From: Eledone cirrhosa | Lineage: Eukaryota | Length of the DNA stretch: 64,000 nucleotides | Reading direction: 5' to 3' | Assembly (NCBI GenBank): GCA_964016885.1 | Contig: OZ024764.1 | Coordinates: 4,898,001 to 4,962,000, forward strand | Part shown: piece by piece, positions 4,087-62,750 of the stretch | Numbering within the stretch: position 1 is the first letter of the stretch | Layout of the letters: every line of letters begins with the position of its first letter | The notes under the pieces: model-generated | What the model was told of the DNA's origin: nothing | Database searches by the model: none | Seen by the model: the letters and a program-made list of their open reading frames with translations, nothing else | Program-made: the position numbers and the translations under genes

Positions 4087-4143
4087 GAACACCACTAATT
4101 TCTCTAATTACAGCCCTTCACTATCCCATTGCAAGAAATTTAC
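4087..4143 (+). CDS. Micro-exon E1 (class A), 57 nt, phase 2-2, NTTNFSNYSPSLSHCKKF; internal in-frame acceptor gives a 30-nt form at 4114-4143; weak donor
   Basis: tttaac...tttttctcattacAG acceptor; donor is GTGTTA, i.e. the usual GTAAGTGTTA minus 4 nt; homologous position to the other 11 exons. Confidence 0.55.
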
Positions 4144-4501
4144 GTGTTACCTTAACAAACTGTCTAACCATTGTTTAATCTGCTCCTTCCTCTACCTCTC
4201 CCTTTATACACACACACACATATATACCCCTATATATATATGTATACACACACACACACAAATATATACACATATATACATATATATATACACACATATA
4301 TATATAATCACATATATATATACATATATACAAGCGAGACACGGCCTGCTGACCAATCTCGCCTTAAGTGGGACAAAACCGTCCAACCCATGCTAGCATG
4401 GAAGATGGACTTTAAATGATGATGATATATACACACTGACACATATATATATATACATATATATATACACATATATATACGCATATATTTATATATATAT
4501 A

Positions 4502-4612
4502 TGAGTTCAAGTCCGCCGAGGTTAACTTTGCCTTTCATCTTTACGAGGTCGATAAAATAAAGTACCAGTGGTGTACTGGGGTAATCGCTGGCCTTGTGCC
4601 AAAAGTAGAAAC
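4502..4612 (+). mobile_element. 5'-truncated tRNA-SINE (Nin/Deu-like central domain), present downstream of each class A exon
   Basis: B box GAGTTCAAGTCC followed by GCCTTTCATCTTTACGAGGTCGATAAAATAAAGTACCAG. Confidence 0.7.
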
Positions 4613-4727
4613 TATAATTATATATATATAACCAAAGATTAATATAGTTCGTTGATTACTCAACGAATACAGTTGTACAACAGATTAGAAGAACTCAACA
4701 GTGAAAGTTTTCCTGGACTTTTTAATA

Positions 4728-4981
4728 TTAACAAATGAAAAATATTCTCATAATCAAAATATATACTTTATTATATACATTTCAAAGGTATATGACATAC
4801 CTCTACGGTCTTGATTCTTCAATTCCAGTATTGCAGTCACTGCCAATACTGGAATTGAAGAATCAAGACCGTAGCGCTATGTCATAATCATATATTTTGT
4901 CTGATGAGGACGTACTGAAAAAACAACAATATATATAATAAAGTATATATTTTGATTATGCGAATATTTTTCATTTGTTAA
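4728..4981. repeat. ~255-bp nested foldback element (copies at ~7405-7658, ~28124-28377, ~41097-41350, ~55259-55512; half copies at ~32145-32260, ~57952-58067)
   Basis: Outer arms ttaacaaatgaaaaatatt.../...aatatttttcatttgttaa; inner stem ctacggtcttgattcttcaattccagtattg / caatactggaattgaagaatcaagaccgtag. Confidence 0.9.
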
Positions 4982-4992
4982 CATTTTGAATA

Positions 4993-5054
<62 letters not shown>

Positions 5055-5162
5055 AGGTAAAATTAATAATGAAAGAGTTGCAAGCCTTTAAAACATATCT
5101 TTATAAAGCTCTTACATATGTTATATATATATATATATATATCTATATATATATATATATAT

Positions 5163-5194
<32 letters not shown>

Positions 5195-5198
<4 letters not shown>

Positions 5199-6809: not shown

Positions 6810-6842
6810 CAACATCCCTATGATCGATTACAAGAAATTTAT
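6810..6842 (+). CDS. Micro-exon E2 (class A), 33 nt, phase 2-2, NIPMIDYKKF
   Basis: ttttttctcattacAG | caacatcc...aaatttat | GTAAGT. Confidence 0.8.
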
Positions 6843-7669: not shown

Positions 7670-7715
<46 letters not shown>

Positions 7716-8911: not shown

Positions 8912-10996
8912 ATAGGGTAGGTTACCATAGGGTAGGTTACTGTAGGGTAGGTTACCATAGGGTAGATAGTGTCTGGTAGGTTACCATAGGGTAGGTTACG
9001 ATAGGGTAGGATAGTGTTTGGTAGGTTACCATAGGGTAGGTTACTGTAGGGTAGGTTACAATAGGGTAGGATACTGTAGGGTAAGTTACTGGAGTGTAGG
9101 TTACGATAGGGTAGGTTACCATTGGGTAGGTTATTATAGGGTAGGTTACCACAGGGTAGGTTACCATAGAATAGGTTACTGTAGGGTATTTTACCATAGG
9201 GTATGTTACCATAGGGTAGGTTACCTTAAGGTAGGTTACCATAGGTAGGTTACCTTAGGGTAGGTGACCATAGTGTAGGTTACCATAGATTAGGTTCTGT
9301 ATGGTAGGTTAGGTTACTATAGGGTAGGTTACCATAGGGTAGGTTACGATAGGGTTGGTTGCCATAGGGTAGGTTACCATAGCGTAGGTTACTATTGGGT
9401 AGGTTACCATAGGGTAGGTTACTGTAGGTTAGGTTACGTAGGGTTGGTTACCATAGGGTAGGTTGCCATAGAGTAGGTTATTATAGGGTAGGTTACCATA
9501 AGGTAGATTACCTCAGGGTAGGTTACTGTAGGGTAGGTTACCATGGGGTAGGTTACCATAGGGTAGGTTACCATAGTGTAGGTTACCTTAAATTAGGTTA
9601 CCACAGGATAAGTTACCATATGGTAGGTTACTGTAGGTTAGGTTACCATAGGTCAGGTTACCATAGGGTAGGTTACTATAGGTTGCTACCATTGGGTAGG
9701 TTACTGTAGGGTAACATAGGTTACCATAGTGTAGGTTAATATAACATAGGTCACCATAGTGTAGGTTACTTTAGATTAGGTTACCATAGGGTAGGTTACC
9801 ACAGGATAGGTTACCATAGGGTAGGTTACTATAGGTTGTTACCATAGGGTAGGTTACGATATGGTTGGTTACCATAGTGTAGGTTACTATAACATTGGTT
9901 ACCATAGTGTAGGTTACCTTAATTTAGGTTACCATAGGTTAGGTTACCGTATCGTAGGTTACTGTAGGTTAGGTTACCATAGGGTAGGTTACTATAGGGT
10001 AGGCTACCAATGATAGGTTACCATAGGGTAGGTTACCACAGGATATGTTACCATAGGGTAGGTTACTGTAGGGTAGGTTACTATAACATAGGTCACCATA
10101 GTGTAGGTTACTTTACATTAGGTTACCATAGGGTAGGTTACCACAGGATAAGTTACCATATGGTAGGTTACTGTAGGTTGTTACCATAGGCTAGGTTACT
10201 ATAACATAGGTTACCAAAGTGTAGGTTTCTATAGGTTGTTACCATAGGGTAGGTTACTGTAGGGTAGGTTACCATAGGTTAGGTTACCATAGTGTAGGTT
10301 ACTGTAGGGTAGGTTACTGTAGGGTAGAATACTGTAGGGTAGGTTACCATAGGGTAGGATACTGTAGGGTAGGTTACTGTAGGGTAGGTTACTGTAGGGT
10401 AGGATACTGTAGGGTAGGTTACTGTAGGGTAGGTTACCATAGAGTAGGATACTGTAGGGTAGGTTACTGTAGGGTAGGATACTGTAGGGTAGGTTACCGT
10501 AGGGTAGGTTACTGTAGGGTAGGTTACCATAGGGTAGGATACTGTAGGGTAGGTTACTGTAGGGTAGGATACTGTAGGGTAGGATACTGTAGGGTAGGTT
10601 ACCATAGGGTAGGATACTGTAGGGTAGGATACTGTAGGGTAGGATACTGTAGGGTAGGATACTGTAGGGTAGGTTACTGTAGGGTAGGTTACCATATATT
10701 AGGATACTGTAGCGTAGGTTACTGTAGGGTAGGTTACCATAGGGTAGGTTATTATAGTATAGGTTACCGTAGGGTAGGTTTCCATGAAGTAGGTGACCAT
10801 AGGGTAGGTTACTATAAGTTAGGTTACCATAGGGTAGGTTTCCATGAAGTAGGTTACCACAGGGTAGGTTAACATAAATTAGGTTACCTTAGGGTAGGTT
10901 ACCATAAGTTAGGTTACCATAGGGTAGGTTACCATAAGTTAGGTTACCATAGGGTAGGTTACCATAAGTTAGGTTACCAGAGGGTAGGTTACCATA
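8912..10996. repeat. 15-bp satellite array
   Basis: ~2.1 kb of TAGGGTAGGTTAC(CA/TG) variants. Confidence 0.95.
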
Positions 10997-11299
10997 GGTT
11001 TGTTAAGGTTAGGCTAGGCTGGTCTACTCGGTGAGTTAAAACTCACTTGTGACTGTAGTGTTTTAGAATAAGTGTCTTAATCTTTCGTGCACCACTAAAT
11101 TTTTTAACTATTTCCCCTGAAACTGCCTTATTTTGGGGAGGTTATCTTATCAATCGAATAGCGTCCTAAATCTAAATTACACCTCAGAATTTTAGGGGCC
11201 ACGCTATGTACCGGATAGACTTGTACACCGGCATATATATATATGCAAAGAGAGCGAGAGAAACAGCGGGAGTGAGAGAGATACATTAAAACAATAACA

Positions 11300-12856: not shown

Positions 12857-12898
12857 GACTGATACAGAGGAGAGTATCGCTCCAGAAAAGAATGACGA
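12857..12898 (+). CDS. Micro-exon E3 (class B), 42 nt, phase 2-2, TDTEESIAPEKND
   Basis: ttttttgtaatcacAG | gactgata...aatgacga | GTAAGT. Confidence 0.8.
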
Positions 12899-15629: not shown

Positions 15630-17345
15630 ATAGGGTAGGTTACTGTTGGGTAGGTTACTGTAGCGTAGGTTACCATAGGGTAGGATAGTGTCTGGTAGGT
15701 TACCATAGGGTAGGTTACTGTAGGGTAGGTTACGATAGGGCAGGATACTGTAGGGTAAGTTACTGGAGGGTAGGTTACCATAGGGTAGGTTACCGTAGGG
15801 TAGGTTACCATTGGGTAGGTTATTATAGGGTAGGTTACTACAGGGTAGGTGACCATAGAATAGGTTACTGTAGGGTATTTTACCATAGGGTATGTTACCA
15901 TAGGGTAGGTTACCTTATGGTAGGTTACCTTAAGGTAGGTTACCATAGGGTAAGTTACCATAGGGTAGGTTACCTTAGGGTAGGTGACCATAGTGTAGGC
16001 TACCATAGGTTAGGTTCTGTATGGTAGGTTAGGTTACTATAGGGTAGGTTACCATAGGGTAGGTTACGATAGGGTTAGTTACCATAGGGTAGGTTACCAT
16101 AGCGTAGGTTACTATTGGGTAGGTTACCATAGGGTAGGTTACTGTAGGTTAGGTTACGTAGGGTAGGTTACCATAGGGTAGGTTGCCATAGAGTAGGTTA
16201 TTATAGGGTAGGTTACCATAAGGTAGATTACCTCAGGGTATGTTACCATATGGTAGGTTACCATATGGTAGGTTACCATAGGGTAGGTTACTGTAGGGTA
16301 GTTTACCATAGTGTAGGATACCTTAAATTAGGTTACCACAGGAAAAGTTACCATATGGTAGGTTACTGTAGGTTAGGTTACCATAGGGTAGGTTATCATA
16401 GGTTAGGTTACCAAAGGGTAGGTTACTATAGGTTGTTACCATTGGGTAGGTTACTGTAGGGTAACATAGGTTACGATAGTGTAGGTTAATATAACATAGG
16501 TCACCATAGTGTAGGTTACCTTAGATTAGGTTACCACAGGATAGGTTACCATATGGTAGGTTACTGTAGGTTAGGTCACCATAGGGTAGGTTACTATAGG
16601 GTAGGCTACTATAGGTTGTTACCATAGGGTAGGTTACTATAGGGTAGGCTACTATAGGTTGTTACCATAGGGTAGGTTACTATAGGTTGTTACCATAGAG
16701 TAGGTTACAATATGGTTGGTTACCATAGTGTAGGTTACTATAACATTGGTTACCATAGTGTAGGTTACCTTAATTTAGGTTACCATAGGTTAGGTTACCG
16801 TATCGTAGGTTACTGTAGGTTAGGTTACAATAGGGTAGGTTACTATAGGGTAGGCTACCAATGATAGGTTATGATGGGTTAGGTTCCATAGGGTAGGTTA
16901 CCACAGTATATGTTACCATATGGTAGGTTAGGTTACCATAGGGTAGGTCACCATAGTGTAGGTTACTTTAGATTAGGTTACCATAGGGTAGGTTACCACA
17001 GGATAAGTTACCATATGGTAGGTTACTATAACATAGGTTACCAAAGTGTAGGTTTCTATAGGTTGTTACCATAGGGTAGGTTACTGTAGGGTAGGTTACT
17101 GTAAGGTAGGTTACCATAGGGTAGGATACTGTAGGGTAGGTTACCAGAGGGTAGGTTATTATAGTATAGGTTACCGTAGGGTAGGTTTCCATGAAGTAGG
17201 TGACCATAGGGTAGGTTACTATAAGTTAGGTTACCATAGGGTAGGTTTCCATGAAGTAGGTTACCACAGGGTAGGTTAACATAAATTAGGTTACCTTAGG
17301 TTAGGTTACCATAAGTTAGGTTACCATACGGTAGGTTACCATAGG
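15630..17345. repeat. 15-bp satellite array
   Basis: Same monomer and same left and right flanking modules. Confidence 0.95.
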
Positions 17346-19353: not shown

Positions 19354-19395
19354 GACTGTTCCACTGCAGAGTTCCGCTAGAGGAAACAGTGACGA
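19354..19395 (+). CDS. Micro-exon E4 (class B), 42 nt, phase 2-2, TVPLQSSARGNSD
   Basis: ttttttgtaatcacAG | gactgttc...agtgacga | GTAAGT. Confidence 0.8.
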
Positions 19396-25700: not shown

Positions 25701-27527
25701 CACAAACCCAAACTGCATTTCATCTAGATCAATTCTCTCTCTGATTAGTTGCGCTATTACTTTTTCTGTGACCCTCATGAACTGGTCAATTAATTTAATG
25801 CCTCTATAGTTTCCCCTATCTAGGGCATCTCCTTTACCCTTGTAGCAGTTAATGATGATGATATATATATAAAAGAAATAGGATTTCGCTTCAAGCATAT
25901 CTTTATACAATATCTCACCACCACTGGCCATGTTTTTTGTGGTCTTCCTTTTACTGGGATTTTTTAGCACCTCTTTACCCAGCGGTCATCCTCGATGCAC
26001 ATCACTTGTCCATACCATCTCAGTCTTCTCTCCTGCACACCACAACTCATCCCCAGTTTCTCTCTCAACTCATCTATGGTCTTGTTGTTCACGCACATTG
26101 ACACACACACATATATATATTAATTCTATTGACTGATTAATAGCTCTTGTTAATTTTAAAACCATTCTGTTGAGAGCTTAATTCGTTTTGTGATATTTTG
26201 CAATAACACACATACTGAATTCATCCGCCAAAACTAAGGGTTGCTCCCCCTCACCCCTTGTCAAGCCCCACGTGGGTTTTGATAACGGTCAGTCCTTGGC
26301 TTGGCACTGAACTAAAAGCCTGTTGAGAAAGTGACTTCCTTGTTCGATCATCATACCAAAAGCTTAACATTATTTGTCTAAGTAGACAGTACTTGATTTA
26401 GGAGTTGCAGAAACCCAATACTGGATATTACCAACCTTCCAGGGGTCCAGGTATAATTTTCCATCATATTTTATTTGTTTGACCCGAATTACTTGGTCGT
26501 GTCTACGGCTGTGTGGATAATGGTTTAACCATCATCTCAATGTGTTTCGCCTTTTAACTTATGTTGTTGCTCTAGTTCACTAGCTTCTATGGAGCGCTTG
26601 CCACACATCTCGGAAGTTGTTTTTCGCTAATTTCCAATAGCAGAAATGCGATTCTCGCTAATTTATATATATATACACGTATAAGGGATAACAAAATATC
26701 GTTATAGGTAATCCAGGTAGAGGTTGTGAATACTCTGTATTGTGGTTAGTCTTAGTCTACGGCGTTGTTTGACTCAACAAGAGGTTTCCGTAGGTGGCAA
26801 GTATTTGAGTTCTCTTGAATTCCTATGTAAGTTTATCTTGGAGTAATAATATTGAAAGTGTGAAGAATAACATGGTCAACAGTACAAAAATAGGTTTTTA
26901 TTTACAGTATTAACAATTGTTTCACTGATTAAGTTGTCTAAAAATTGCTGAAAACTTAAAGCTGTGCCACTCAATCTACTATATATATTGGAAGTGGTCG
27001 GACGTTGTATATTTAAGTAAATAAGTAGGTGTAGTCGGATAAACGTCGAAACGGCTTGGTGGAATGCAGCGAAAATTTACACAGTTATGCAGAATTGTAG
27101 CAGTTAATGATGATGATGATATATATGTAAAAGAAATAGGATTTCGCTTCAAGCATATCTTTATACAATATGTATAAATATTTCGTATCTCCAAAGAAAT
27201 ACGGTTTTAGGAAGCCTTAGCTCTGCAAACCCTGGGGGGATAACGTCCTCTGGTGATGTCCAGCAGAAGCAAGGGGGACAACCGTCTATGCATTTCAGGC
27301 TTAACTGGCCATCGTCTGGACAGTCCCTCCCACTGCTTGCGACTGCTGGCCAGTTAAGCGTGAAATGCATAGACGGTTGTCCCCCTTGCTTCTGCTGGAC
27401 ATCACCAGAGGCCTTGAAACCCTAAGTCCCTTTTGCTCTGTGTATGAACAGAAATAAATAATGTAATATATATATATGTATGTGTGTGTATCTATTTATA
27501 TATTTAACTATATTTTTCTCTTCACAG

Positions 27528-27554
27528 CTGGTTTAATAGACTAAAGAAATTGAT
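27528..27554 (+). CDS. Micro-exon E5 (class A), 27 nt, phase 2-2, WFNRLKKL
   Basis: tttttctcttcacAG | ctggttta...aaattgat | GTGAGT; both other frames contain stops. Confidence 0.8.
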
Positions 27555-28388: not shown

Positions 28389-28429
<41 letters not shown>

Positions 28430-28466
28430 ATTAAATAAATGGAAAACTATATTTATAAAACCATAT

Positions 28467-28533
28467 TTATTTCATTATATATATTTCGGGGATATCATAT
28501 TAACAATATGCTATGCCTTCATCAGACAAAATA
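28467..28533 (-). ncRNA. Minimal type I hammerhead ribozyme-like motif (Penelope-like remnant), degenerate stem II
   Basis: Minus strand UAUUUUGU-CUGAUGA-AGGCAUAGCAUAUU(GUU)AAUAUGAUAUCCCC-GAAA-UAUAUAUA^AUGAAAUA. Confidence 0.55.
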
Positions 28534-28915: not shown

Positions 28916-28972
<57 letters not shown>

Positions 28973-29286: not shown

Positions 29287-29318
<32 letters not shown>

Positions 29319-29826: not shown

Positions 29827-29861
<35 letters not shown>

Positions 29862-30095: not shown

Positions 30096-30127
<32 letters not shown>

Positions 30128-31537: not shown

Positions 31538-31570
31538 GCCAAATTATTTCCCCGAGTACAAGAAAGTTAT
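31538..31570 (+). CDS. Micro-exon E6 (class A), 33 nt, phase 2-2, PNYFPEYKKV
   Basis: tttttctcattacAG | gccaaatt...aaagttat | GTAAGT. Confidence 0.8.
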
Positions 31571-33209: not shown

Positions 33210-33251
33210 GTTTGATTCACTGCCGAGGTCCACTATAGGAAACAGTGACGA
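33210..33251 (+). CDS. Micro-exon E7 (class B), 42 nt, phase 2-2, FDSLPRSTIGNSD
   Basis: ttttttgtaatcacAG | gtttgatt...agtgacga | GTAAGT; both other frames contain stops. Confidence 0.8.
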
Positions 33252-33537: not shown

Positions 33538-33568
<31 letters not shown>

Positions 33569-40478: not shown

Positions 40479-40508
40479 GAACACCACTAATTTCTCCGAA
40501 AAATTTCT
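40479..40508 (+). CDS. Micro-exon E8 (class A), 30 nt, phase 2-2, NTTNFSEKF
   Basis: tttttctcattacAG | gaacacca...aaatttct | GTAAGT. Confidence 0.8.
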
Positions 40509-42668: not shown

Positions 42669-44723
42669 ATAGGGTAGGTTACCATAGGGTAGGTTACTGT
42701 AGGGTAGGTTACCATAGGGTAGATAGTGTCTCGTAGGTTACAATAGGGTAAGTTACGATAGGGTAGGATAGTGTTTGGTAGGTTACCATAGGGTAGGTTA
42801 CTGTAGGGTAGGTTACGATAGGGTAGGATACTGTAGGGTAAGTTACTGGAGCGTAGGTTACCATAGGGTAGGTTACCATTGGGTAGGTTACCATTGGGTA
42901 GGTTATTATAGGGTAGGTTACCACAGGGTAGGTTACCATAGAATAGGTTACTGTAGGGTATTTTACCATAGGGTATGTTACCATAGGGTAGGTTACCTTA
43001 AGGTAGGTTACCATAGGTAGGTTACCTTAGGGTAGGTGACCATAGTGTAGGTTACCATAGATTAGGTTCTGTATGGTAGGTTAGGTTACCATAGGGTAGG
43101 TTACGATAGGGTTGGTTGCCATAGGGTAGGTTACCATAGCGTAGGTTACTATTGGGTAGGTTACCATAGGGTAGGTTACTGTAGGTTAGGTTACATAGGG
43201 TTGGTTACCATAGAGTAGGTTATTATAGGGTAGGTTACCATAAGGTAGATTACCTCAGGGTAGGTTACTGTAGGGTAGGTTACCATGGGGTAGGTTACCA
43301 TAGGGTAGGTTACCATAGTGTAGGTTACCTTAAATTAGGTTACCACAGGATAAGTTACCATATGGTAGGTTACTGTAGGTTAGGTTACCATAGGTCAGGT
43401 TACCATAGGGTAGGTTACTATAGGTTGCTACCATTGGGTAGGTTACTGTAGGGTAACATAGGTTACCATAGTGTAGGTTAATATAACATAGGTAACCATA
43501 GTGTAGGTTACTTTAGATTAGGTTACCATAGGGTAGGTTACCACAGGATAGGTTACCATAGGGTAGGTTACTATAGGTTGTTACCATAGGGTAGGTTACG
43601 ATATGGTTGGTTACCATAGTGTAGGTTACTATAACGTTGGTTACCATAGTGTAGGTTACCTTAATTTAGGTTACCATAGGTTAGGTTACCGTATCGTAGG
43701 TTACTGTAGGTTAGGTTACCATAGGGTAGGTTACTATAGGGTAGGCTACCAATGATAGGTTACCATAGGGTAGGTTACCACAGGATATGTTACCATAGGG
43801 TAGGTTACTGTAGGGTAGGTTACTATAACATAGGTCACCATAGTGTAGGTTACTTTAGATTAGGTTACCATAGGGTAGGTTACCACAGGATAAGTTACCA
43901 TATGGTAGGTTACTGTAGGTTGTTACCATAGGCTAGGTTACTATAACATAGGTTACCAAAGTGTAGGTTTCTATAGGTTGTTACCATAGGGTAGGTTACT
44001 GTAGGGTAGGTTACCATAGGTTAGGTTACCATAGTGTAGGTTACTGTAGGGTAGGTTACTGTAGGGTAGGATACTGTAGGGTAGAATACTGTAGGGTAGG
44101 TTACCATAGGGTAGGATACTGTAGGGTAGGTTACTGTAGGGTAGGATACTGTAGGGTAGGTTACTGTAGGGTAGGTTACCATAGAGTAGGATACTGTAGG
44201 GTAGGTTACTGTAGGGTAGGATACTGTAGGGTAGGTTACCGTAGGGTAGGTTACTGTAGGGTAGGTTACCATAGGGTAGGATACTGTAGGGTAGGTTACT
44301 GTAGGGTAGGATACTGTAGGGTAGGATACTGTAGGGTAGGATACTGTAGGGTAGGTTACTGTAGGGTAGGTTACCGTAGGGTAGGTTACTGTAGGGTAGG
44401 TTACCATAGGGTAGGATACTGTAGGGTAGGTTACCATAGGGTAGGTTATTATAGTATAGGTTACCGTAGGGTAGGTTTCCATGAAGTAGGTGACCATAGG
44501 GTAGGTTACTATAAGTTAGGTTACCATAGGGTAGGTTTCCATGAAGTAGGTTACCACAGGGTAGGTTAACATAAATTAGGTTACCTTAGGGTAGGTTACC
44601 ATAAGTTAGGTTACCATAGGGTAGGTTTCCACAAGGTATTAACATAAAGTAGGTTACCATAAGTTAGGTTACCATAGGGTAGGTTACCATAAGTTAGGTT
44701 ACCAGAGGGTAGGTTACCATAGG
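42669..44723. repeat. 15-bp satellite array (paralog of 8912-10996)
   Basis: Monomer variants largely in the same order as 8912-10996. Confidence 0.95.
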
Positions 44724-46780: not shown

Positions 46781-46822
46781 GACTGATACAGAGGAGGGTA
46801 CCGCTCCAGAAAATAATGAGGA
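46781..46822 (+). CDS. Micro-exon E9 (class B), 42 nt, phase 2-2, TDTEEGTAPENNE
   Basis: ttttttgtaatcacAG | gactgata...aatgagga | GTAAGT. Confidence 0.8.
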
Positions 46823-49619: not shown

Positions 49620-51036
49620 ATAGGGTAGGTTACCATACGGTAGGGTACTGTAGGGTAGGTTACCATAGGGCAGGTTACTGTAGGGTAGGATACTGTCTGG
49701 TAGGTTACCATAGGGTAGGTTACTGTAGGGTAGGTTACTATAGGGTAGGTTACTGTAGGGTAGGTTACCTTGGGTAGGTTACTGTAGTGTAGGTTACCTT
49801 GGGTAGGTTACTATAGGGTAGGTTACTGTAGTGTAGATTACTCTAGGCTAGGTTACCATAGGGTAGGTTACTGTAGTGTAGATTACCATAGGGTAGGTTA
49901 CCACAGAGTAGGTGACCATAGGGTATGTTATTATAGGGTAGGTAACTGTAGGTTAGGTTACTGTAGGGTAGGTTACCTTATGGTAAGTTACTATAGGGTA
50001 GGTTACCATAGTGTAGGTTACCTTATGGTAAGTTACTATAGGGTAGGATACCATAGGGTAGGTTACCTTATGGTAAGTTACTATAGGGTAGGTTACCATA
50101 GTGTAGGTTACCTTATGGTAAGTTACTATAGGGTAGGTTACCATAGGGTAGGTTACCTTAGTGTAGGTAAGAATAGGGTAGGTTACCATAGGTTAGGTTA
50201 CTGTAGGGTAGGTTACCATAAGGTAGGTTACTGTAGGGTAGGTTACCATAGGGTAGGTTACTGTAGGGTAAATTACCATAGGGTAGGTTACCATAGGGTA
50301 GTTTACCGTAGGTTAGGTTACTGTAGGGTAGGTTAACATAGGGTATGTTAGCATAGGGTTGGTTACCATAGGTTAAGTTCATATAGGTTGTTACCATATG
50401 GTAGGTTACTGTAGGGTAGGTTGCTATAGGGTAGGTTATCGTAGAGTAGGTTACTATAAGGTAGGTTACCATAAGGTAGGTTACCGTAGGGTAGGTTACT
50501 ATAGGGTAGGGTATCATAGGATAGGTTACCATAAGGCAGGTTACCATAGAGTAGGTTACCTTAGGGTAGTTTACTATAAGATAGGTTACCATAGTGTAGC
50601 TTACCATAGGGTAGGTTGTTACCATAGGCAAGGTTACTATAGGGTGGGTTACCATAGGGTAGTTTATGATATGGTTGGTTACCATAGTGTAGGTTACTAT
50701 AACATAGGTTACCATAGTGTAGGATACCTTAGATTAGGTTACCACAGGATAGGTTACTGTAGGTTAGGTTACCATATGGTAGGTTACCATAGGTTAGGTT
50801 AGCAATGGGTAGGTTACTATAGGTTGTTACCATAAGGTAGGTTACTGTATGGTGGGTTACCATAGGGTAGGGTACCATAAAGTAGGTTATTATAGTGTAG
50901 GTTACCTTAGGATAGGTAACCATAGGGTAGGTTACTATGGGGTAAGTTACCATAGGGTAGGTTCCCATAGGGTAGGTTAACATAAGCTAGGTTACCTCAG
51001 GGTAGGTTACCATACCATAAAGTAGGTTACCATAGG
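49620..51036. repeat. 15-bp satellite array
   Basis: Same monomer and flanks. Confidence 0.95.
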
Positions 51037-54000
51037 TTTGTTAAGGTTAGGCTAGGCTGGTTTACTCGGTGAGTTAAAACTCACTTGTGACTGTAGTGTT
51101 TTAGAAGTGTCTCAATCTTTCATGCACCACTAAATTTTTTAACTATTTCCCCTGAAACTGCCTTATTTTTGGGGGTCATCTTATCAATCGAATAGCGTCC
51201 TAAATCTAAATTATACTTCAGAATTTTAGGGGCCGACTTATGTACCGGATAGACTTGTACACCGGCATATATGGTATATATATATATATGCATGGAGGCA
51301 CATGGCTTAGTGGTTAGAGCATTGGTCATGCAATCGAAAGGTTGTGAGTTCAATTCTCAGACCGGGTGATGTGTTGGTTCCTTGAGCAAGACACTTTATT
51401 TCACATTGCTCCAGTTTACTCAGCTGTAGAAATGAGATGATAGGGACTGGGGTCCCTATCATTCCACTGCAAAGTGGTCGTGGAGGTGCCACGGCAAAAA
51501 AAGCACCCAGCACTCACTGTAAATGAGGTTGGTGACAGGAAGGGAATACAGCTGTAGAAATCAAGCCAGAATCAGTTCCCGTCCCGCCCTTGCAAGCAGG
51601 GAAAAGTGGACGTAAAATGAAATGATGAAAGAGAGATAGAGAGAAAGAGAGGGAGTGAGAGAGATACATTAAAACAATAACAGAAGGTCTGACTGGAGAA
51701 TTTACTTTAGAATTCCTTCACGGAAATGTCTTATTTATCTGTAACACAAACTTCAAAAAACAAGACAACCACTTAATAACCGATAGATCAAGTGAGCCCT
51801 CCAGCTAGATAGATTTCCTTGTTACCAGAAGACAGAGTGACTGTTATAAACACAAAGTCCTTCCCTAGTGAAGAATGCACCTCCCAAAATACCTTAGAAT
51901 ACAACCTGGAAGAAAAGAGTATAGATCAAAATCAAAAGGTCTTAAAGTCAATTTGGTAAAGACTAAAGTTCTAGTAAGTAGAAAGGAAAACAGGGCCCAG
52001 ATCTCTTCAGGTAAACTGTCCTGCTCAGTGTGCAGAAAAGGAGTAGGTAGAAATTCCATCCTATGTCCCATATAGAAATGATGGGTACACAAAAGATGTC
52101 GTGGGATCTCAGGGAGGCTAACAAAGAACGTAGCTTCTACATGTGGCCAGTGAACAGGGGCAGGAAATATCAAGAGCTCTCGAGTTACAATCTCCTTCAA
52201 ATGCCCAGAAGTCTCTGCAGAGGTGGTAGATAGTTTCTGTTACCTAGGTGACTAAATCAGCAGTGGAGGAGGGTGGTCCAAAAACTCAGTAACAAGAGTG
52301 AGATTAGATTGGAGAAAGTGCAGGGATCTACTACTACTGCTAACTACAAAACATTTTTCCATCAAAATGAAGGGCAGACTGTATGATGCAGGTATACAAA
52401 CAACAATGTTGCACAGCAGCGAGACCTGGGCACTGTGTGTAGAAGATCTGTAAAGATTGGAAAGAAATGAAGCCTCCATGCTTCAATGGATGTGCCATAG
52501 TAATATATGCAAATGGCAAAACATAGGTTACCATTGGGTAGGTTACTGTAGGGTAGGGTACCATAGGGTGGGTTACCATAGCGTAGGTTACTGAATGGTA
52601 GGTTACATTTTGTTAGGTTACTGTAGGGTAGGTTACCATAGGGTAGGTTACCATAGGGTGGGTTACCATAGGGTAGGTTACTGTAGGGTAGGTTACCATA
52701 GGGTAGTTATGTAGGGTAGGTTACCATAGTGTAGGTTACTGTAGGGTAGGTTACCATAGAGTAGGATACTGTAGGGTAGGTTACCATAGGGTAGTTATGT
52801 AGGGTAGGTTACCATAGTGTAGGTTACTGTAGGGTAGGTTACCATAGAGTAGGATACTGTAGGGTAGGTTACCATAGGTTAGGTCACTGTAGGGTAGGTT
52901 ACCATAGGGTAGGTTATTATAGGGTAGGTTACCATAGGTTAGGTTACTATAGGGTTGGTTGCCATAGGGTATGTTACCATAGGGTAGGTTACTATAAGGT
53001 AGGTTACCATACCATAGGTTAGGTTACCATATGTTTGTTAAGGTTAGGCTAGGCTGGTTTACTCGGTGAGTTAAAACTCACTTGCGACTGTAGTGTTTTA
53101 GAAGAAGTGTCTTAATCTTTAGTGCGCCACTAAATTTTTTAACTATTTCCCCTGAAACTGCCTTATTTTTTGGGTGTCGTCTTATGAATCGAATAGTGTC
53201 GTATAGGACTATCTGGCATGTTTTCTATGGCTGGATGCCCTTCCTAACACCAACCACGTTTACAGTGTGGGGACTGGGAGGTTTTTACCATGTTAACTAC
53301 ACGGCCAATTTACAGCGTGGACTGTGTGTTTTATTGTCATGACACCTACACAACCTCATTTATTTAGGACTGGATGATGTGTGACCAACATAATTTTACA
53401 GAGATGGGGGTGGGAGTAGTGGGGTGGGGGCGTATATTTGGTTAAGAGGTGCCTACTGACTGTAGGTTTCGCTTTGTACTTAGGCAAGGGTGGTCTTCTG
53501 TATTACTGCGTAGCGCCAAAGATCTCGGTTCAGTGACATTGTTTTGGAGAGGTGTAAGTGTGTGAGATCGGAATTTATCAATTCGTCCCAGGGTTTTCTG
53601 GGTCTGCCTACTCCGTGGCTACCATCTATTTTGATCGCCCTGCACTTTTTTATACAGCTGTCGTCTTTCATGCGCATCACGTGACCATACCAACGTAGTC
53701 TTCTCTCGAGTAAACAACATCTGATCCCTCTTATTCCTAATTTCTCACTTAGTTCATTTATGCTTTGCCGTTCACGTATATTACTATTACACATCCAGCG
53801 GAGCATGCAAACTTCATTCCTCTCCAGTCTGCGTATATCCTCTGCACACAATGCCCAAGTCTCACTGCCATGTAACATTGTTGTTCGTATGCAGGCATCA
53901 TACAGCCTGCCTTTCATTTTTAGAGAGAACCCTTTAGCGGCCAATCGTACAATGAAAAGAGCGTCTGTGATACTTTTACCTGACACAAACCCAAACTGCA

Positions 54001-54552
54001 TTTCATCTAGATCAATTCTCTCTCTGATTAGTTGCGCTATTACTTTTTCTGTGACCCTCATGAACTGGTCAATTAATTTAATGCCTCTATAGTTTCCCCT
54101 ATCTAGGGCATCTCCTTTACCCTTGTAGCAGTTAATGATGATGATATATATATAAAAGAAATAGGATTTCGCTTCAAGCATATCTTTATACAATATGTAT
54201 AAATATTTTGTATCTCCAAAGAAATACGGTTTTAGGAAGCCTTAGCTCTGCAAACCCTGGGGGGCAAACGTCCTCTGGTGATGTCCAGCAGAAGCAAAGG
54301 GGACAACCGTCTATCCATTTCAGGCTTAACTGGCCATCGTCAGGACAGTCCCTCCCACTGCTTGCGACTGCTGGCCAGTTAAGCATGAAATGCATAGATG
54401 GTTGTCCCCCTTGCTTCTGCTGGACATCACCAGAGGCCTTGAAACCCTAAGTCCCTTTTGTTCTGTGTATGAACAGAAATAAATAATGTAATATATATAT
54501 ATGTATGTGTGTGTATCTATTTATATATTTAACTATATGTTTCTCATTACAG

Positions 54553-54630
54553 GAACACCACTAATATCTCCGAAAAATTTATTACTACTCTTTTATGCAG
54601 CCTTCCCTCCAATGATTACAAGAAATTTAT
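54553..54630 (+). CDS. Micro-exon E10 (class A), 78 nt, phase 2-2, NTTNISEKFITTLLCSLPSNDYKKF; internal in-frame acceptor gives a 30-nt form at 54601-54630
   Basis: tttctcattacAG | gaacacca...aaatttat | GTAAGT; internal ctcttttatgcAG ending at 54600. Confidence 0.75.
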
Positions 54631-56460
54631 GTAAGTGTTACCTTAACATACTGTCTAACCATTGTTTAATCTGCTCCTCCCTCTACCTCTCCCTTTATAC
54701 ACACACACACATATATACCCCTATATATATATGTATACACACACACACACAAATATATACACATATATACATATATATATACACACATATATATATAATC
54801 ACATATATATATACATATATACAAGCGAGACACGGCCTGCTGACCAATCTCGCCTTAAGTGGGACAAAACCGTCCAACCCATGCTAGCATGGAAGATGGA
54901 CTTTAAATGATGATGATATATACACACTGACACATATATATACATATATATATACACATATATATACGCATATATTTATACATATATATATATACACATA
55001 TATATACGCATATATCTATATATATATATATGAGTTCAAGTCCGCCGAGGTTAACTTTGCCTTTCATCTTTACGAGGTCGATAAAATAAAGTACCAGTGG
55101 TGTACTGGGGTAATCGCTGGCCTTGTGCCAAAAGTAGAAACTATATTTATATATATATATAACCAAAGATTAATATAGTTCGTTGATTACTCAACGAATA
55201 CAGTTGTACAATAGATTAGAAGAACTCAACAGTGAAAGTTTTCCTGGACTTTTTAATATTAACAAATGAAAAATATTCTCATAATCAAAATATATACTTT
55301 ATTATATACATTTCAAAGGTATATGACATACCTCTACGGTCTTGATTCTTCAATTCCAGTATTGCAGTCACTGCCAATACTGGAATTGAAGAATCAAGAC
55401 CGTAGCGCTATGTCATAATCATATATTTTGTCTGATGAGGACGTACTGAAAAAACAACAATATATATAATATAGTATATATTTTGATTATGCGAATATTT
55501 TTCATTTGTTAACATTTTGAATAATATATATACATATATATATATACATATATATATATATGTATAGGTAAAATGAATAATGAAAGAGTTGCAAGCCTTT
55601 AAAACATATCTTTATAAAGCTCTTACATATGTTATATATATATATATCATCATTATCATTTTATGTCCGCTTTTCCCTGCTTGCAAGGGTTGGGCTCTCA
55701 CCACCACTGGCCATGTTTTTCGTGGTCTTCCTTTTACTGGGATTTTTTAGCACCTCTTTACCCAGCAGTCATCCTCGATGCGCATCACTTGTCCATACCA
55801 TCTCAGTCTTCTCTCCTGCACACCACAACTCATCCCCAGTTTCTCTCTCAACTCATCTATGGTCTTGTCGTTCACGCACATTGACACACACACACACACA
55901 CATATATATATATTAATTCTATTGACTGATTAATAGCTCTTGTTAATTTTAAAACCATTCTGTTGAGAGCTTAATTCGTTCTGTGATATTTTGCAATTTT
56001 GCAATAACACACATACTGAATTCATCCGCCAAAACTAAGGGCTGCCCCCCACCCCCCCTGTGAAGCCCCACGTGGGTTTTGATAACGGTCAGTCCTTGGC
56101 TTGGCACTGAACTAAAAGCCTGTTGAGAAAGTGACTTCCTTGTTCGATCATCATACCAAAAGCTTAACATTATTTGTCTAAGTAGACAGTACTTGATTTA
56201 GGAGTTGCAGAAACCCAATACTGGATATTACCAACCTTCCAGGGGTCCGGGTATAATTTTCCATCATATTTTATTTGTTTTACTCGAATTACTTGGTCGT
56301 GTCTATGGCTGTGCGGATAATTGTTTAACCATCGTCTCAGTGTGTTTGGCCTTTTAACTTATGTTGTTGCTCTAGTTCACTAGCTTCTATGGAGCGCCTG
56401 CCACACATCTCGGAAGTTGTTTTTCGTTAATTTCCAATAGCAGAAATGCAATTCTCGCTA

Positions 56461-56498
<38 letters not shown>

Positions 56499-57339
56499 GT
56501 ATAAGGGATAACAAAATATCGTTATAGGTAATCCAGGTAGAAGTTGTGAATACTCTGTATTGTGGTTAGTCTTAGTCTACAGCGTTGTTTGACTCAACAA
56601 GAGGTTTCCGTAGGTGGCAAGTATTTGAGTTCTCTTGAATTTCTATGTAAGTTTATCTTGGAGTAATAATATTGAAAGCGTGAAGAATAACATGGTCAAC
56701 AGTACAAAAGAAGGTTTTTATTTACAGTATTAACAATTGTTTCACTGATTAAGTTGTCTAAAAATCGCTGAAAACTTAAAGCTGTGCCACTCAATCTACT
56801 ATATATATTGGAAGTGGTCGGACGTTGTATATTTAAGTAAATAAGTAGGTGTAGTCGGATAAACGTCGAAACGGCTTGGTAGAATGCAGCGAAAATTTAC
56901 ACAGTTATGCAGAATTGTAGCAGTTAATGATGATATATATGTAAAAGAAATAGGATTTCGCTTCAAGCATATCTTTATACAATATGTATAAATATTTTGT
57001 ATCTCCAAAGAAATACGGTTTTAGGAAGCCTTAGCTCTGCAAACCCTGGGGGGCTAACGTCCTCTGGTGATGTCCAGCAGAAGCAAGGGGGACAACCGTC
57101 TATGCATTTCAGGCTTAACTGACCATCGTCTGGACAGTCCCTCCCACTGCTTGCGACTGCTGGCCAGTTAAGCGTGAAATGCATAGACGGTTGTCCCCCT
57201 TGCTTCTGCTGGACATCACCAGAGGCCTTGAAACCCTAAGTCCCTTTTGCTCTGTGTATGAACAGAAATAAATAATGTAATATATATATATGTATGTGTG
57301 TATCTATTTATATATTTAACTATTTTTTTCTCATTACAG

Positions 57340-57375
57340 GAACACCACTACTTCAATTGATTCCAATAAATTGAT
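57340..57375 (+). CDS. Micro-exon E11 (class A), 36 nt, phase 2-2, NTTTSIDSNKL
   Basis: ttttttctcattacAG | gaacacca...aaattgat | GTAAGT; both other frames contain stops. Confidence 0.8.
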
Positions 57376-58683
57376 GTAAGTGTTACCTTAACATACTGTC
57401 TAACCATTGTTTAATCTGCTCCTCCCTCTACCTCTCCCTTTATACACACACACACATATATACCCCTATATATATATGTATACACACACACACACAAATA
57501 TATACACATATATACATATATATATACACACATATATATACATATATACAAGCGAGACACGGCCTGCTGACCAATCTCGTCTTAAGTGGGACAAAACCGT
57601 CCAACCCATGCTAGCATGGAAGATGGACTTTAAATGATGATGATATATATACACTGACACATATATATACATATATACAAATATATATACGCATATATCT
57701 ATATATATATATATATGAGTTCAAGTCCGCCGAGGTTAACTTTGCCTTTCATCTTTACGAGGTCGATAAAATAAAGTACCAGTGGTGTACTGGGGTAATC
57801 GCTGGCCTTGTGCCAAAAGTAGAAACTATATTTATATATATATAACCAAAGATTAATATGGTTCGTTGATTACTCAACGAATACAGTTTTACAATAGATT
57901 AGAAGCACTCAACAGTGAAATTTTCCTGGAGTTTTTAATATTATTCAAAATATTAACAAATGAAAAATATTCTCATAATCAAAATATATACTTTATTATA
58001 TACATTTCAAAGGTATATGACATACCTCTACGGTCTTGATTATTCAATTCCACTATTGGCAGTGACTATATATTTATAGGCAAAATGAATAATGAAAGAG
58101 TTGCAAGCCGTTAAAACATATCTTTATAAAGCTCTTACATATGTTATATATATATATATCATCATCATCATTATATGTCCGCTTTTCCCTGCTTGCAAGG
58201 GTAGGGCTCTCACCACCACCGGCCATGTTTTTTGTGGTCTTCCTCTACTGCGTCTTCCTTCTACTGGGATTTTTTAGCACCTCTTTACCCAGCGGTCATC
58301 CTCGATGCACATCACTTGTCCATACCATCTCAGTCTTCTCTCCTGCACATCACAACTTATCCCCAGTTTCTCTCTCAACTCATCTATGCTCTTGTCGTTC
58401 ACGCACATTGACACACACACATACACATATATGTATATATATATATACACACACACATATAAGGGATAACAAAATATCGTTATAGGTAATCCAGGTAGAG
58501 GTTGTGAATACTCTGTATTGTGGTTAGTCTTAGTCTACGGCGTTGTTTGACTCAACAAGAGGTTTCCGTAGGTGGCAAGTATTTGAGTTCTCTTGAATTC
58601 CTATGTAAGTTTATCTTGGAGTAATAATATTGAAAGCGTGAAGAATAACATGGTCAACAGTACAAAAATAGGTTTTTATTTAC

Positions 58684-58789
58684 AGTATTAACAATTGTTT
58701 CACTGATTAAGTTGTCTAAAAATTGCTGAACACTTGAAGCTGTGCCACTCAATTTTAAATATGTTGTTAGCTTAACCAGATCATCAGAA

Positions 58790-58793
<4 letters not shown>
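58684..58793 (-). ncRNA. Type I hammerhead-like motif in a (TA)n-flanked repeat (Penelope-like remnant)
   Basis: Minus strand UAUU-CUGAUGA-UCUGGUUAAG...CUUAAUCAGU-GAAA-CAAUUGUU^AAUA; palindromic stem III. Confidence 0.5.
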
Positions 58794-58832
<39 letters not shown>

Positions 58833-59254
58833 TACAAATTATGTCCATAGAACCATTTGATAAGATATATACACCATTTCCTCTCCCAATTAGCATAATC
58901 AACCACACAAAAAATCAATTAGACCAGGCTATAAGATTAAAAGGCACCTATGATAAAATAGTAGATAAATAAACGACAGCATTTCAATAGCATGTGGAAA
59001 TCAATTAAATATATCGTCAACCATACACAATTAGGTATAAAATTAAAGTTAGAAGAAAAAATGCATATACACATACCAGGATTATGTTTCTACCCTTTAG
59101 GGTTTCGTTTGCATTTGGAAATATACTATCAAGGATAAATTCGATATAAATTCTATAAATTTATCAAGGATAAATTTATAGTATATTGCTCTGATTATTT
59201 AATTTATTAATTCATCATTGAGCCACATCGTGAATGGTTGCCAAAAACATATAT

Positions 59255-59380
59255 ATCTATGACTTTGTCTAGTTTGTGTATATGTAAATCTTTATATTGA
59301 TTGTTCCTTATGTAGCACAGCCTTTCAGATTCCATCTTTGCGCACAAGTCTACAGCAAGCTGGTTGAAGAGTACTCTTGC
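59255..59380 (-). mobile_element. Helitron Rep/helicase N-terminal fragment (decayed)
   Basis: LFNQLAVDLCAKMESERLCYIRNNQ resembles the Helitron motif LFxQFxVDMYAKIESERLxYIRxNQ; cut off by the adjacent RTE. Confidence 0.65.
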
Positions 59381-59384
59381 ACGG

Positions 59385-60855
59385 TGGAACAGCAACGTAG
59401 TAAGTAAGGCAATCAAAGATATGAAGATGGGGAAGGCAACCGGTCCATCGGGTATAGCTGCCGAGATGCTGAAGGCATCTGGGTCTGTAGGTCACACTAT
59501 AACCACACGTATTGTTAACCAGGTAATACTAGAAGGTGTCATACCAAAAGATTGGTGCAGTAGCATCATTGTCAACTGCTACAAAAGTAAAGGTGATGCA
59601 CTAGATAGAGGAAACTATAGAGGTATAAAGCTGATGGACCAGGTCATGAAAGTAACAGAAAGAGTTATAGCACAGTTGAAGAGGCACCACTGATGCCCTC
59701 TTCCTTGTCAGGCAGTTACAGGAAAAGTACCTAGCTAAAAGTAAGCCACTCTACCTGGCATTTGTCGACCTTGAGAAAGCCTTTGACAGAGTTCCACGTG
59801 CTGTAATCTGGTGGGCTCTTAGAAAACTAGGAGTAGATGAATAGCTTGTGAAAGTGGTACAAGCCATGTATAGGGGAGCAGTCAGCAAAGTTAGGATTAG
59901 CAATGAGTATAGCGAGGAATTTAGCGTACAGGTTGGGGTCCATCAGGGCTCTGTTCTTAGCCCCCTCCTGTTCATCATTGTCCTGCAGGCAATAACGGAG
60001 GACTTTAAGACCGGATGCCCATGGGAACTCCTGTATGCTGATGACCTCGCACTCATAGCTGAATCTATGGTAGAACTAGAGAAGAAATTCCAAACTTGGA
60101 AGCAGGGACTAGAAAGAAAGGGTCTCAAAGTCAACATGACAAAGACTAAGGTCCTTGTAAGTAGACGAGAAAACAGAACCCAGATCCCCTCAGGGAAATG
60201 GCCTTGCTCAGTATGTAGGAACTCCATTCTCTGCCCCAAATGCAAACAATGAGTACACAAGAGATGTAGCGGGATCTCAGGAAGCTTAATTAAGAATGTA
60301 GGCTTCACATGCAGCAGCTGTGCTGGGACAGCAAGCAGCAAACAGCCACAGGAAACAAGTACCACCAATCTCTGGGAGGGCTCTGTAGAAACAGTAGACA
60401 GCTTCTGCTACCTAGGTGACCGAATTAGCAGCGGAGGTGGGTGTTCAGAAAGTACAATAACTAGGGTAAGAATGGAATGGAAGAAGTTTAGGGAACTACT
60501 ATCACTGCTAGCTGCAAAAGGCTTCTCCCTCAAAATGAAAGGCAGACTGTATGATGCGTGTATCCGAACAGCGATGTTGCATGGTAGTGAGACCTGGGCT
60601 CTGAAGGTGGAAGACTTACGTAGATTAGAGAGAAACGAAGCCTGCATGCTCCGATGGATGTGTAACAGTAATATACGCGAACGACAAAGCATAAATGAAT
60701 TGAGAGACTGAGCATAAGAGGAATCAAATGCTGTGTGCAGGAGAGGCGGTTGCGCTGGTATGGACATGTGATGCGTATGAAGGATGACAGCTGCATAAAA
60801 AGGTGCAGAGCACTAGAAGTCGATGGAAACCACGGAGTGGAGGGACCCAAGATGA
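59385..60855 (+). mobile_element. Longest RTE LINE reverse-transcriptase remnant; single copy in window; pseudogenised
   Basis: GKATGPSGI, NYRGIKL, AFVDLEKAFDRV, GVHQGSVLSPLLF, LLYADDL, GLKVNMTKTK, RLRWYGHVMRM with stops, deletions and frameshifts. Confidence 0.92.
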
Positions 60856-62708
60856 GGAGAGAAAGAGTGTGAGAGAGAGAGAGTGAGAGAAAGAGAGGGA
60901 GTGAAAGAGAGAAATAGAGGGATTGAGAGAGATACATTAAAACAATAACAGAAGGTCTGACTGGAGAATTTACTTTAGAATTTTAAGAGAAAAGAGGAAG
61001 ATTTCAGACTTCTGGAATTCCTTCACGAAAATGTCCTATATATCTGGAACACAAACTTCAAAAAATGAGACAACCACTTAATAACCTATAGATCATGTGA
61101 GCCCACCAGCTAGATAGATTTCATTGTTACCAGAAGACAGAGTGACTGTTATAAACACAATGTCCCTCCCTAGTGAAGAATGCACCTCCCAAAATACCTT
61201 AGAAGACAACCTGGAAGAAAAGAGTAGAGATCAAAATCAAAAGGTCTTAAAGTCAATTTGGTAAAGACTAAAGTTCTAGTAAGTAGAAAGGAAAACTGGG
61301 CCCAGATCTCTTCAGGTAAACTGTCCTGCTCAGTGTGCAGAAAAGGAGTAGGTAGAAATTCCCATCCTATGTCCCATATAGAAATGATGGGTACACAAAA
61401 GATGTTGTGGGATCTGAGGGAGGCTAACAAAGAACGTAGCTTCTATATGTGGCCAATGAACAGGAGCAGTAAATAACAAGAACTCTCAGGTTACAATCTC
61501 CTTCAAATACCCAGAAGTCTCTGTAGAGGTGGTAGATAGTTTCTGTTACCTAGGTGACTAAATCAGCAGTGGAGTAGGGTGGTCCAAAAATTCAGTAACC
61601 AGAGTGAGATTAGATTGGAGAAAGTGCAGGGATCTACTACTACTGCAAACTACAAAACATTTTTCCCTCAAAATGAAGGGCAGACTGTATGATGCAGGTA
61701 TACAAACAACAATGTTGTACAGCAGCGAGACCTGGGCACTGTGTGTAGAAGATCTGTAAAGATTGGAAAGAAATGAGCCTCCATGCTTCAATGGATGTGC
61801 CATAGTAATATATGCAAATGGCAAAACATAAATGTACTGTGAGAGGATTTAGGCATAAGAGGGATTAGATGCAGTGTGCAGGAGTGGGATTGTTTTGGTA
61901 TAGACATGTGATGTGTATGAAGGGTGACAGCTGTATAAAAAGGTGCCAAACGCACAAAGTTGACAGAGGCCGTGGAGTGGGCAGGTCTAGGAAGACTTGG
62001 GATGAGGTAAGGAAAGCTGATTTTGCACAATTACACCTAGCTAAGGCAATGACACAGGATGGTGACTTCTGGCGCTATGCACAATTATAGAGGACTACAT
62101 CCACAATCCACCAGACATTTTCCCTACCAACACCCCACACAAGTTCCCAAACCTCACCATAAAGTGGTCCCGCTGCAGCCATGACAAACGTGTCCAGTCC
62201 ACACTGTACAGTGGTCTTGTAGGTGTCTTGCCAAAAATCAATATTGGGCCTTAAAACCTTGAGTCCCTTTTGTTCTGTGTATGAACATAAATAATTGTTT
62301 CTACTTTTGGCACAAGGCCAGCAATTATCCAGTGCATTACTGGTACTTTATTTTATCGACCCCGTAAGGATGAAAGGCAAAGTTAACCTCGGCGGGATTT
62401 GAACTCAGATCATACAGGGAGGTAACTATGCTTCAAAGCATGGCGTCCGACCCTCTACCGATACTGCCAATCCACCGCCTGAACATAAATAAATAATTGG
62501 TTCTACTTTAGGCACAAGGCCAGCAATTACCTAGTACATTACTGGTACTTTATTTTATCGACTCCGTAAGGATGAAAGGCAAAGTCAACCTCGGAGGGAT
62601 TTGAACTCAGATCGGAAAGGGACGTAACTAAATAAATAATGTAGTATATATATATATATTTGTGTGTGTATCTATTTATATATTTAAGTATATTTTTTGT
62701 AATCACAG

Positions 62709-62750
62709 GACTGATACAGAGGAGGGTACCGCTCCAGAAAATAATGACGA
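62709..62750 (+). CDS. Micro-exon E12 (class B), 42 nt, phase 2-2, TDTEEGTAPENND
   Basis: ttttttgtaatcacAG | gactgata...aatgacga | GTACGT. Confidence 0.75.

Follow-up and report, generated by a model that had tools for sequence, protein, structure and literature searches.

Tandem array of short, symmetric exons in a predicted M13 (neprilysin-like) gene of Eledone cirrhosa

The 64,000-nucleotide stretch of Eledone cirrhosa DNA considered here, hereafter the window (C25:4,898,001-4,962,000, C25 being contig OZ024764.1 of the 3.0-Gb genome), contains twelve short segments, each preceded by a near-identical block with the features of a splice acceptor and followed by a donor-like hexamer. A preliminary description of the window, made from its letters, had read these segments as duplicated, diverging, symmetric phase-2 micro-exons of a gene that it did not recognise and whose remaining exons lie outside the window. 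The locus raises the question of which gene carries such exons, how far they extend and how they might be used. The description of the segments stands, with the extension that the micro-exons number 103 rather than 12 and that the gene to which they belong is M13/neprilysin-like.

Extent and reading frame of the array

The 26-nt acceptor block matches the window 12 times, on the + strand only and with 0-1 mismatches, and in the genome the acceptor-block pattern is matched exactly 107 times in forward and 5 times in reverse orientation; two longer patterns, one for each of the two flank types described below, have 54 and 60 matches, all of them on C25. Reading 664 kb around the window for copies places 103 micro-exons on the + strand over 528 kb (C25:4,871,418-5,399,532), with the window holding array copies 7-18 and the array beginning 26.6 kb before it and finishing 437.5 kb after it. 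The copies are distributed among seven lengths (42 nt in 54 copies, 33 nt in 17, 30 nt in 17, 78 nt in 5, 36 nt in 5, 57 nt in 3 and 27 nt in 2), each specifying a peptide of about 8-26 amino acids, and represent 55 distinct DNA sequences, which encode 50 peptides and fall into 19 families at 80% identity. The donor is GTAAGT in 96 copies, GTGTTA in 3, GTGAGT in 2, GTACGT in 1 and GAAAGT in 1, i.e., one of GTAAGT, GTGAGT and GTACGT in 99 of the 103. The donor pattern mis-cut two copies (array copy 41 and copy 5 of paralogue B, described below), which were re-read from their flanks as 42 nt.

These copies share a single open frame. In phase 2 none of the 55 distinct sequences contains a stop, as against 41 and 21 of the 55 in the other frames, and base shuffles of the 19 family representatives never left all of them stop-free (0 of 20,000, with a mean of 10.3 of the 19 containing a stop). 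The divisibility by 3 of each of the seven distinct lengths has p = 4.6e-4, assuming independent lengths. Additionally, none of the 3,080 possible exon junctions creates a stop, and thus any order or subset of the micro-exons stays readable. Within the window, the twelve blocks, the segment lengths (Table 1; 504 nt in sum, all multiples of 3) and the end letters were re-measured exactly as first reported, as was the openness of phase 2 alone (stops in 10 of the 12 segments in phase 0, in E2, E5, E7 and E11, i.e., 4 of the 12, in phase 1, and in none in phase 2); the assertion that the junctions cannot make a stop extends to the entire array. Further copies, in which lengths and frames might have proved random, comprise 91 more in the array and 16 in three paralogous loci, and all are multiples of 3 with the same phase-2 frame open. 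Two points of the preliminary description require amendment. The putative branch point TTTAAC is present in 10 of the 12 copies, with E9 and E12 having TTTAAG instead. Likewise, the letters of the window donors (nine GTAAGT and one each of GTGAGT, GTACGT and GTGTTA) are correct, but GTGTTA corresponds to the usual GTAAGTGTTA donor after the loss of 4 nt, and E1 is therefore probably a damaged exon.

The copies belong to two flank types, A (49 copies) and B (54 copies), which alternate irregularly along the array. The introns, of 953-9,942 nt, are duplicated units in which fragments of retroelements are combined with dispersed repeats and with satellites of 15 and 30 bp; the 15-bp satellite, in up to 139 copies, and the 30-bp satellite occur at window positions 8912-10998, 15630-17345, 35590-36967, 42669-44723 and 49620-51014, among others. 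The possibility that the array is an assembly artefact was rejected, as the closest blocks are 99.2-99.8% identical rather than identical, and 55 distinct exons could not have come from collapsed or doubled reads. In addition to the 103, four type-A copies with a deleted acceptor block are found on C25 near 5,100,300, 5,277,050, 5,338,550 and 5,355,270, each about 150 nt past an exon of the RLDM/RRDM type. The 57- and 78-nt exons (E1, E10 and six more copies) contain an in-frame acceptor-like AG at +27 or +48, which is followed by a 30-nt unit; by their sequence they resemble fused units and could be usable as shorter exons.

Table 1. Micro-exons in the window and an example of the block that precedes them (positions within the window)
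Feature	Position	Strand	Description
E1 (array copy 7 of 103)	4087..4143	+	57 nt, type A; donor GTGTTA damaged by 4-nt deletion; in-frame acceptor-like AG at +27
E2	6810..6842	+	33 nt, type A; YxxF motif
E3	12857..12898	+	42 nt, type B; acidic TDT family, 30 array copies
E4	19354..19395	+	42 nt, type B; TVPL family, 20 copies
E5	27528..27554	+	27 nt, type A; donor GTGAGT
E6	31538..31570	+	33 nt, type A; YxxV motif
E7	33210..33251	+	42 nt, type B
E8	40479..40508	+	30 nt, type A; NTTN family
E9	46781..46822	+	42 nt, type B
E10	54553..54630	+	78 nt, type A; apparent fusion of two 30-nt units via an acceptor remnant; in-frame internal AG at +48
E11	57340..57375	+	36 nt, type A
E12	62709..62750	+	42 nt, type B; donor GTACGT
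Acceptor block, example	4050..4086	+	putative branch point, T tract and CAG; precedes every micro-exon

The host gene, its paralogues and octopus homologues

Comparison of the flanks with paralogous loci points to a conserved exon 13.7 kb past the last micro-exon, beginning in phase 2 and coding for a hydrophobic segment. From this anchor to the stop, a 20-exon model of the host gene, gene A, was built with the help of M13 proteins and of paralogue B, which is compact; its transmembrane exon lies at C25:5,413,283 and its last coding exon at C25:5,629,413. All 20 exons of this constant part have AG/GT ends and together they maintain an open frame of 633 amino acids. The array is upstream of and in frame with the phase-2 transmembrane exon, and the 19 exons after it read as a complete M13 ectodomain. 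Joined end to end, the 103 micro-exons and 20 constant exons make 123 exons encoding 2,011 amino acids without a stop, of which the tail accounts for up to 1,378. There is a single hydrophobic segment in the product (KD19 of 3.0, versus a maximum of 0.34 in the tail), with basic residues on its N side. An extra 57-nt 'exon', which had given gene A an apparent frameshift, was discarded: the phases are consistent in its absence, and it lies within a transposon of high copy number (96-98% identity among the 40 candidates scored out of 1,907). Gene A has an intron of 163 kb (C25:5,453,998-5,617,368), versus 10 kb in paralogue B, with a 46-bp satellite from 5,458,400.

The assignment to the M13 family is based on profiles, motifs and alignment. 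The PF01431 profile matches the last exon at 26.6 bits (cut-off 24.5) and the exon with the HExxH-type motif at 22.3 bits, below the cut-off; in a genome search 9 of its 33 matches are on C25, with matches downstream of each locus and on the matching strand. An exon-by-exon genome search with PF05649 placed none of its 34 matches on C25, yet the model aligns over 696 columns to Octopus sinensis proteins that bear this domain. The VNAFY and ENIAD motifs are present in gene A and paralogue B, with Q rather than G before ENIAD. HExxH, GENIAD and VNAFY are named catalytic motifs of the family, and expressed Drosophila members without key residues are on record (PMC2259306). Gene A has HKIFH where the zinc motif HExxH would stand, without the catalytic Glu, on account of which the product is probably no active peptidase. 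More canonical M13 genes are found elsewhere in the genome, in a cluster at C24:7.50-7.83 Mb, at C2:318 Mb and at several places on C3.

Neprilysin has its N-terminus in the cytosol and its M13 domain outside the cell (PMC3870290). With this topology the micro-exons would encode a cytosolic tail, and gene A would specify a type II membrane protein with a micro-exon-encoded N-terminal tail, the orientation being that of neprilysin. An extracellular mucin-like stalk, a role considered in view of 46 N-x-S/T sequons, is ruled out because the M13 domain comes after the sole membrane segment.

At three further loci on C25, exons of this kind likewise precede the transmembrane exon on the coding strand, making four of four with gene A. 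Paralogue B (C25:7.16-7.30 Mb, minus strand) has flanks 97-99% identical to those of gene A, an HEIFH motif and 6 micro-exons; paralogue C (C25:25.08-25.35 Mb) has HEIFH and 9 micro-exons; and paralogue D (C25:7.50-7.55 Mb) has HQIFH and, in the 30 kb read, 1 micro-exon 1.2 kb before the anchor exon. The catalytic Glu has thus been lost in two of the four through different changes of one codon, to Lys in gene A and to Gln in paralogue D. The condition of paralogue D, with one 42-nt juxtamembrane exon, suggests that this was the ancestral state, and the four paralogues on one contig display steps in the growth of an array, with 1, 6, 9 and 103 exons. Paralogue B has two copies, 52 kb apart (C25:7,248,700-7,325,000), of its 5' region and first two micro-exons, which match gene A with 98-99% identity. 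In paralogues C and D, Cys and Trp are abundant in the juxtamembrane micro-exons, a composition that suggests palmitoylation sites.

Searches for homologues with single exons found nothing, and a profile-free search against cluster representatives gave 42 generic M13 matches, which led to proteins of O. sinensis, the nearest in the databases being the neprilysin-like models XP_036361320/1 and XP_029639718. The paralogue B model and XP_036361321 are 34% identical over 696 columns (E 2.5e-114), and in a quick tree of 22 chosen rows A and B form a clade with two O. sinensis proteins (Shimodaira-Hasegawa-like approximate likelihood ratio test, SH-aLRT, 100), the tree having preceded model correction and including gene A cut to 435 amino acids and gene B 19 too long. 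As in gene A, the tails of these homologues, of about 20-85 amino acids, contain repeated units: XP_029639718 has three near-identical units of 14 residues, XP_029640079 two related ones of 13-14, and XP_036361320/1 several of 12-14, with isoforms X1 and X2 differing by a single internal 14-residue unit. Fourteen residues correspond to 42 nt, the commonest micro-exon length. Four neprilysin isoforms of O. bimaculoides differ at their extreme N-termini only, and in Paroctopus digueti neprilysin-1-like transcripts are reported from the anterior salivary and digestive glands (PMC12607849).

Divergence of the exons and the use of the array

Among distinct units, the exons have a p-distance of 0.27 in type A and 0.215 in type B, versus 0.020 and 0.033, respectively, in the adjoining 107-nt flank, and the type-A flanks hold at about 3% over 450 nt on both sides. 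Even in the type-A pairs with flanks less than 0.5% apart (63 of 1,176), the exons are still 19.6% apart, and a 15-kb block shared by gene A and paralogue B at 98.9% identity holds their last micro-exons, which are mismatched at 5 of 33 nt (p = 3.6e-5). In a sliding-window control over 900-nt flanks, windows reach 0.39-0.41 at a distance of a few hundred bases, where the units lose homology. Most simply, the introns would be homogenised by conversion, and conversion tracts erasing exon differences would not be retained; local hypermutation is a possible source of the exon divergence.

As to how the exons are used, the sequence features lead us to lean, with moderate confidence, towards a cassette array on an M13 gene, in which several micro-exons are joined and some are skipped. 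Multi-exon inclusion with skipping is favoured on account of the long introns, the near-identical splice sites without an evident means of exclusion and the multi-unit homologues. Under this proposal, a single ancestral 42-nt juxtamembrane exon, as in paralogue D, would have been multiplied by unequal crossing-over, with recent duplication and conversion keeping the flanks alike while the exon sequences diverged. Transcripts would then link several micro-exons and skip others, yielding N-terminal cytosolic tails varied in length and content, up to about 1,378 amino acids, on a constant ectodomain without the catalytic glutamate. In the weakest step of the proposal, the tails would vary how a pseudo-enzyme that binds peptides is sorted or turned over, or which partners it binds. 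This role is the likeliest in view of the tail units, in which acidic Ser/Thr units are mixed with basic units carrying Yxx-hydrophobic motifs; YXX-phi is an endocytic signal (PMC2882754), and the tail may contribute to sorting or signalling.

Several observations weigh against the cassette proposal, some of which are taken up below with the rival that they favour. The exons of gene A are read from genomic sequence, no spliced transcript having come to light; a search for RNA data sets holding window positions 53500-57600 listed none, and the sole hint of alternative splicing, the one-unit difference between X1 and X2, comes from annotation models only. Three sequencing runs from one sample, covering window positions 25000-35400, behave as genomic DNA: none of the 15 joints listed, out of 1,300, joins exon ends, and each of the runs contains a second form of E7; since these runs may themselves have served for the assembly, nothing is drawn from them. 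The type-B pairs with flanks less than 1% apart have exons just 0.6% apart, which track the flanks. The ratio of non-synonymous to synonymous change (pN/pS) among close micro-exons is 1.03 (47 non-synonymous and 12 synonymous changes on 31 tree edges), with values of 0.61-0.88 in type A and 2.5-3.0 in type B, none of them significant (p 0.06-0.53), and the absence of stops among the changes between close exons is weak by itself (p 0.04-0.09). At four-fold sites, type A differs at 18 of 173, versus 0.3% in the flanks, and type B at 1 of 476, the pairs not being independent; this raised divergence in type A means that protein-level selection alone fails to explain the contrast between exons and flanks. 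The full tail contains 22 Yxx-hydrophobic motifs, versus 6.9 in shuffles, in copies that are related by descent; matches resembling immunoreceptor tyrosine-based inhibitory or switch motifs (ITIM/ITSM) number 7, versus 1.5 in shuffles, and go back to few ancestors.

The start of the gene bears on an alternative that we regard as unlikely, namely that gene A has lately been silenced or is decaying, its exons having been functional while they diversified, its start exon having been lost and its array now expanding as a big tandem repeat. No start exon of gene A was found. Paralogues C and D have a common upstream ATG followed by a phase-2 GTAAGT donor, and this candidate exon is cut away in A and B, which keep just the 115-150 nt preceding the ATG. 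It sits in a dispersed repeat, copies of which are numerous in the genome (73-82% identity), and is hence a candidate only, possibly a repeat-derived first exon; no copy of it lies inside the array, and no first exon for individual units was found there. An upstream block common to A, C and D was set aside as a repeat that is present downstream too. The missing start would suit a silenced gene, as would the changes of the catalytic Glu to Lys and of a Cys to Phe and the overall neutral look of the constant exons, whose 631 codons show 15 non-synonymous against 3 synonymous changes between A and B, those two residues included (p = 0.78). Eight damaged copies, of which one has a dead donor, three have deleted donors and four are without an acceptor, point in the same direction, along with blocks of 21-23 kb, recently duplicated at 99.4-99.8% identity, that copy exons wholesale. 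However, the 20 constant exons all keep their frame and AG/GT ends, both indels relative to paralogue B are in frame (-6 and +3), and none of the 55 distinct micro-exons has acquired a stop. Further, non-peptidase M13 genes are expressed in Drosophila (PMC2259306), the first micro-exon junction itself reads ATG, and seven start-exon candidates, as yet unsupported, are present in the 73 kb upstream.

Two other modes of splicing may be set against the joining of several micro-exons with skipping. A choice of one or very few of the 103 exons in each transcript, either mutually exclusive or as one type-B plus one type-A exon, appears improbable: introns of 953-9,942 nt impose no steric block, the symmetry of the exons permits double inclusion without a frame penalty, and the O. 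sinensis homologues hold several units per protein. Dscam1-type clusters use docking-site/selector pairing. In 2 of the 103 units, compared with the two outer introns, no unique complement of the docking type was found, just repeat-derived matches. Such a choice would nevertheless accord with the basic ends of most type-A exons, which in this are like the juxtamembrane exon of paralogue D and any of which could adjoin the helix, and with the sharp, exon-limited divergence, which suits alternatives obliged to differ. Conversely, nearly all intact copies could be spliced constitutively into one disordered tail of about 1,300 amino acids, whose length would differ between individuals via unequal crossing-over. 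The near-identical and mostly consensus splice sites, the open full concatenation and a pN/pS near 1, as expected of a low-constraint linker, are compatible with this. We nonetheless consider it quite improbable, since a passive linker has no need of exons that diverge at about ten times the rate of the flanking sequence, the damaged copies must be skipped, and an O. sinensis homologue is annotated with a one-unit skip.

A more far-reaching proposal, doubtful though conceivable, is that gene A encodes a diversified receptor, with a constant, catalytically dead, peptide-binding neprilysin ectodomain and a combinatorial cytosolic tail drawn from 103 micro-exons and 50 peptides, several with tyrosine sorting or ITIM/ITSM-like motifs, with selection against homogenisation, or else local hypermutation, maintaining the hyperdivergence of the exons. 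If true, the array would exceed in size any single exon cluster of Drosophila Dscam1 and would place the diversity on the signalling rather than the recognition side.

Relation to known systems

No description of a cephalopod M13 micro-exon array was found in the literature, supplements and most subscription journals being outside the scope of the search; tandem duplicated exon substitutions are treated in PMC9741552, without mention of an array of this kind in the passages searched. Standard annotation likely misses exons of 27-42 nt that are set in near-identical introns, and hence similar arrays in other cephalopod genomes may have been overlooked. The contrast between exons and flanks, which in type A reaches silent sites, offers a natural test in which gene conversion is weighed against either selection or local hypermutation.

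Within the M13 family, gene A resembles neprilysin, ECE and the Drosophila Nepl non-peptidases in its predicted type II layout, VNAFY and ENIAD motifs and PF01431 C-terminus, and the loss of catalytic residues is likewise known from the Drosophila expansions (PMC2259306). Unlike the short N-terminal tail of neprilysin (PMC3870290), that of gene A would be drawn from 103 exons over 528 kb, with its actual length depending on splicing.

The preliminary description had compared the segments with the micro-exon genes (MEGs) of Schistosoma and with Dscam1, a likeness that applies to the short symmetric exons and the tandem arrangement, respectively, but not to the products: that of gene A is not secreted as in MEGs, and its variable part would be a cytosolic tail instead of an immunoglobulin (Ig) ectodomain. 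MEGs have short exons (6-81 bp), mostly multiples of 3, between long introns, as in the array (bioRxiv 10.1101/2023.06.21.545858). However, an MEG has 10-20 exons, and its product is a small secreted protein bearing a signal peptide, in contrast to the 103 homologous exons, near-identical introns, internal anchor and 633-residue M13 part of gene A. Dscam1 similarly has tandem duplicated, diverged exons upstream of constant exons in one gene, but its clusters, of 12, 48, 33 and 2 exons, are mutually exclusive and encode mostly extracellular Ig parts (PMC5465998), as opposed to the single cluster of gene A, whose 103 micro-exons come in seven lengths and would encode a cytosolic tail. Gene A is thus neither a schistosome MEG nor a Dscam. 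UGT1, the clustered protocadherins and chelicerate sDscam also splice variable exons, arrayed at the 5' end, to a constant set of exons at the 3' end (PMC1885805, PMC4835542); in those clusters each unit is a first exon that has a start and a promoter of its own, whereas the intact units of gene A all have an acceptor and are internal exons. Big duplicated-exon arrays are known chiefly from Dscam1 and such variable-first-exon clusters, in which they diversify extracellular or substrate-binding parts; here the part concerned would be the cytosolic tail of an M13 pseudo-peptidase.

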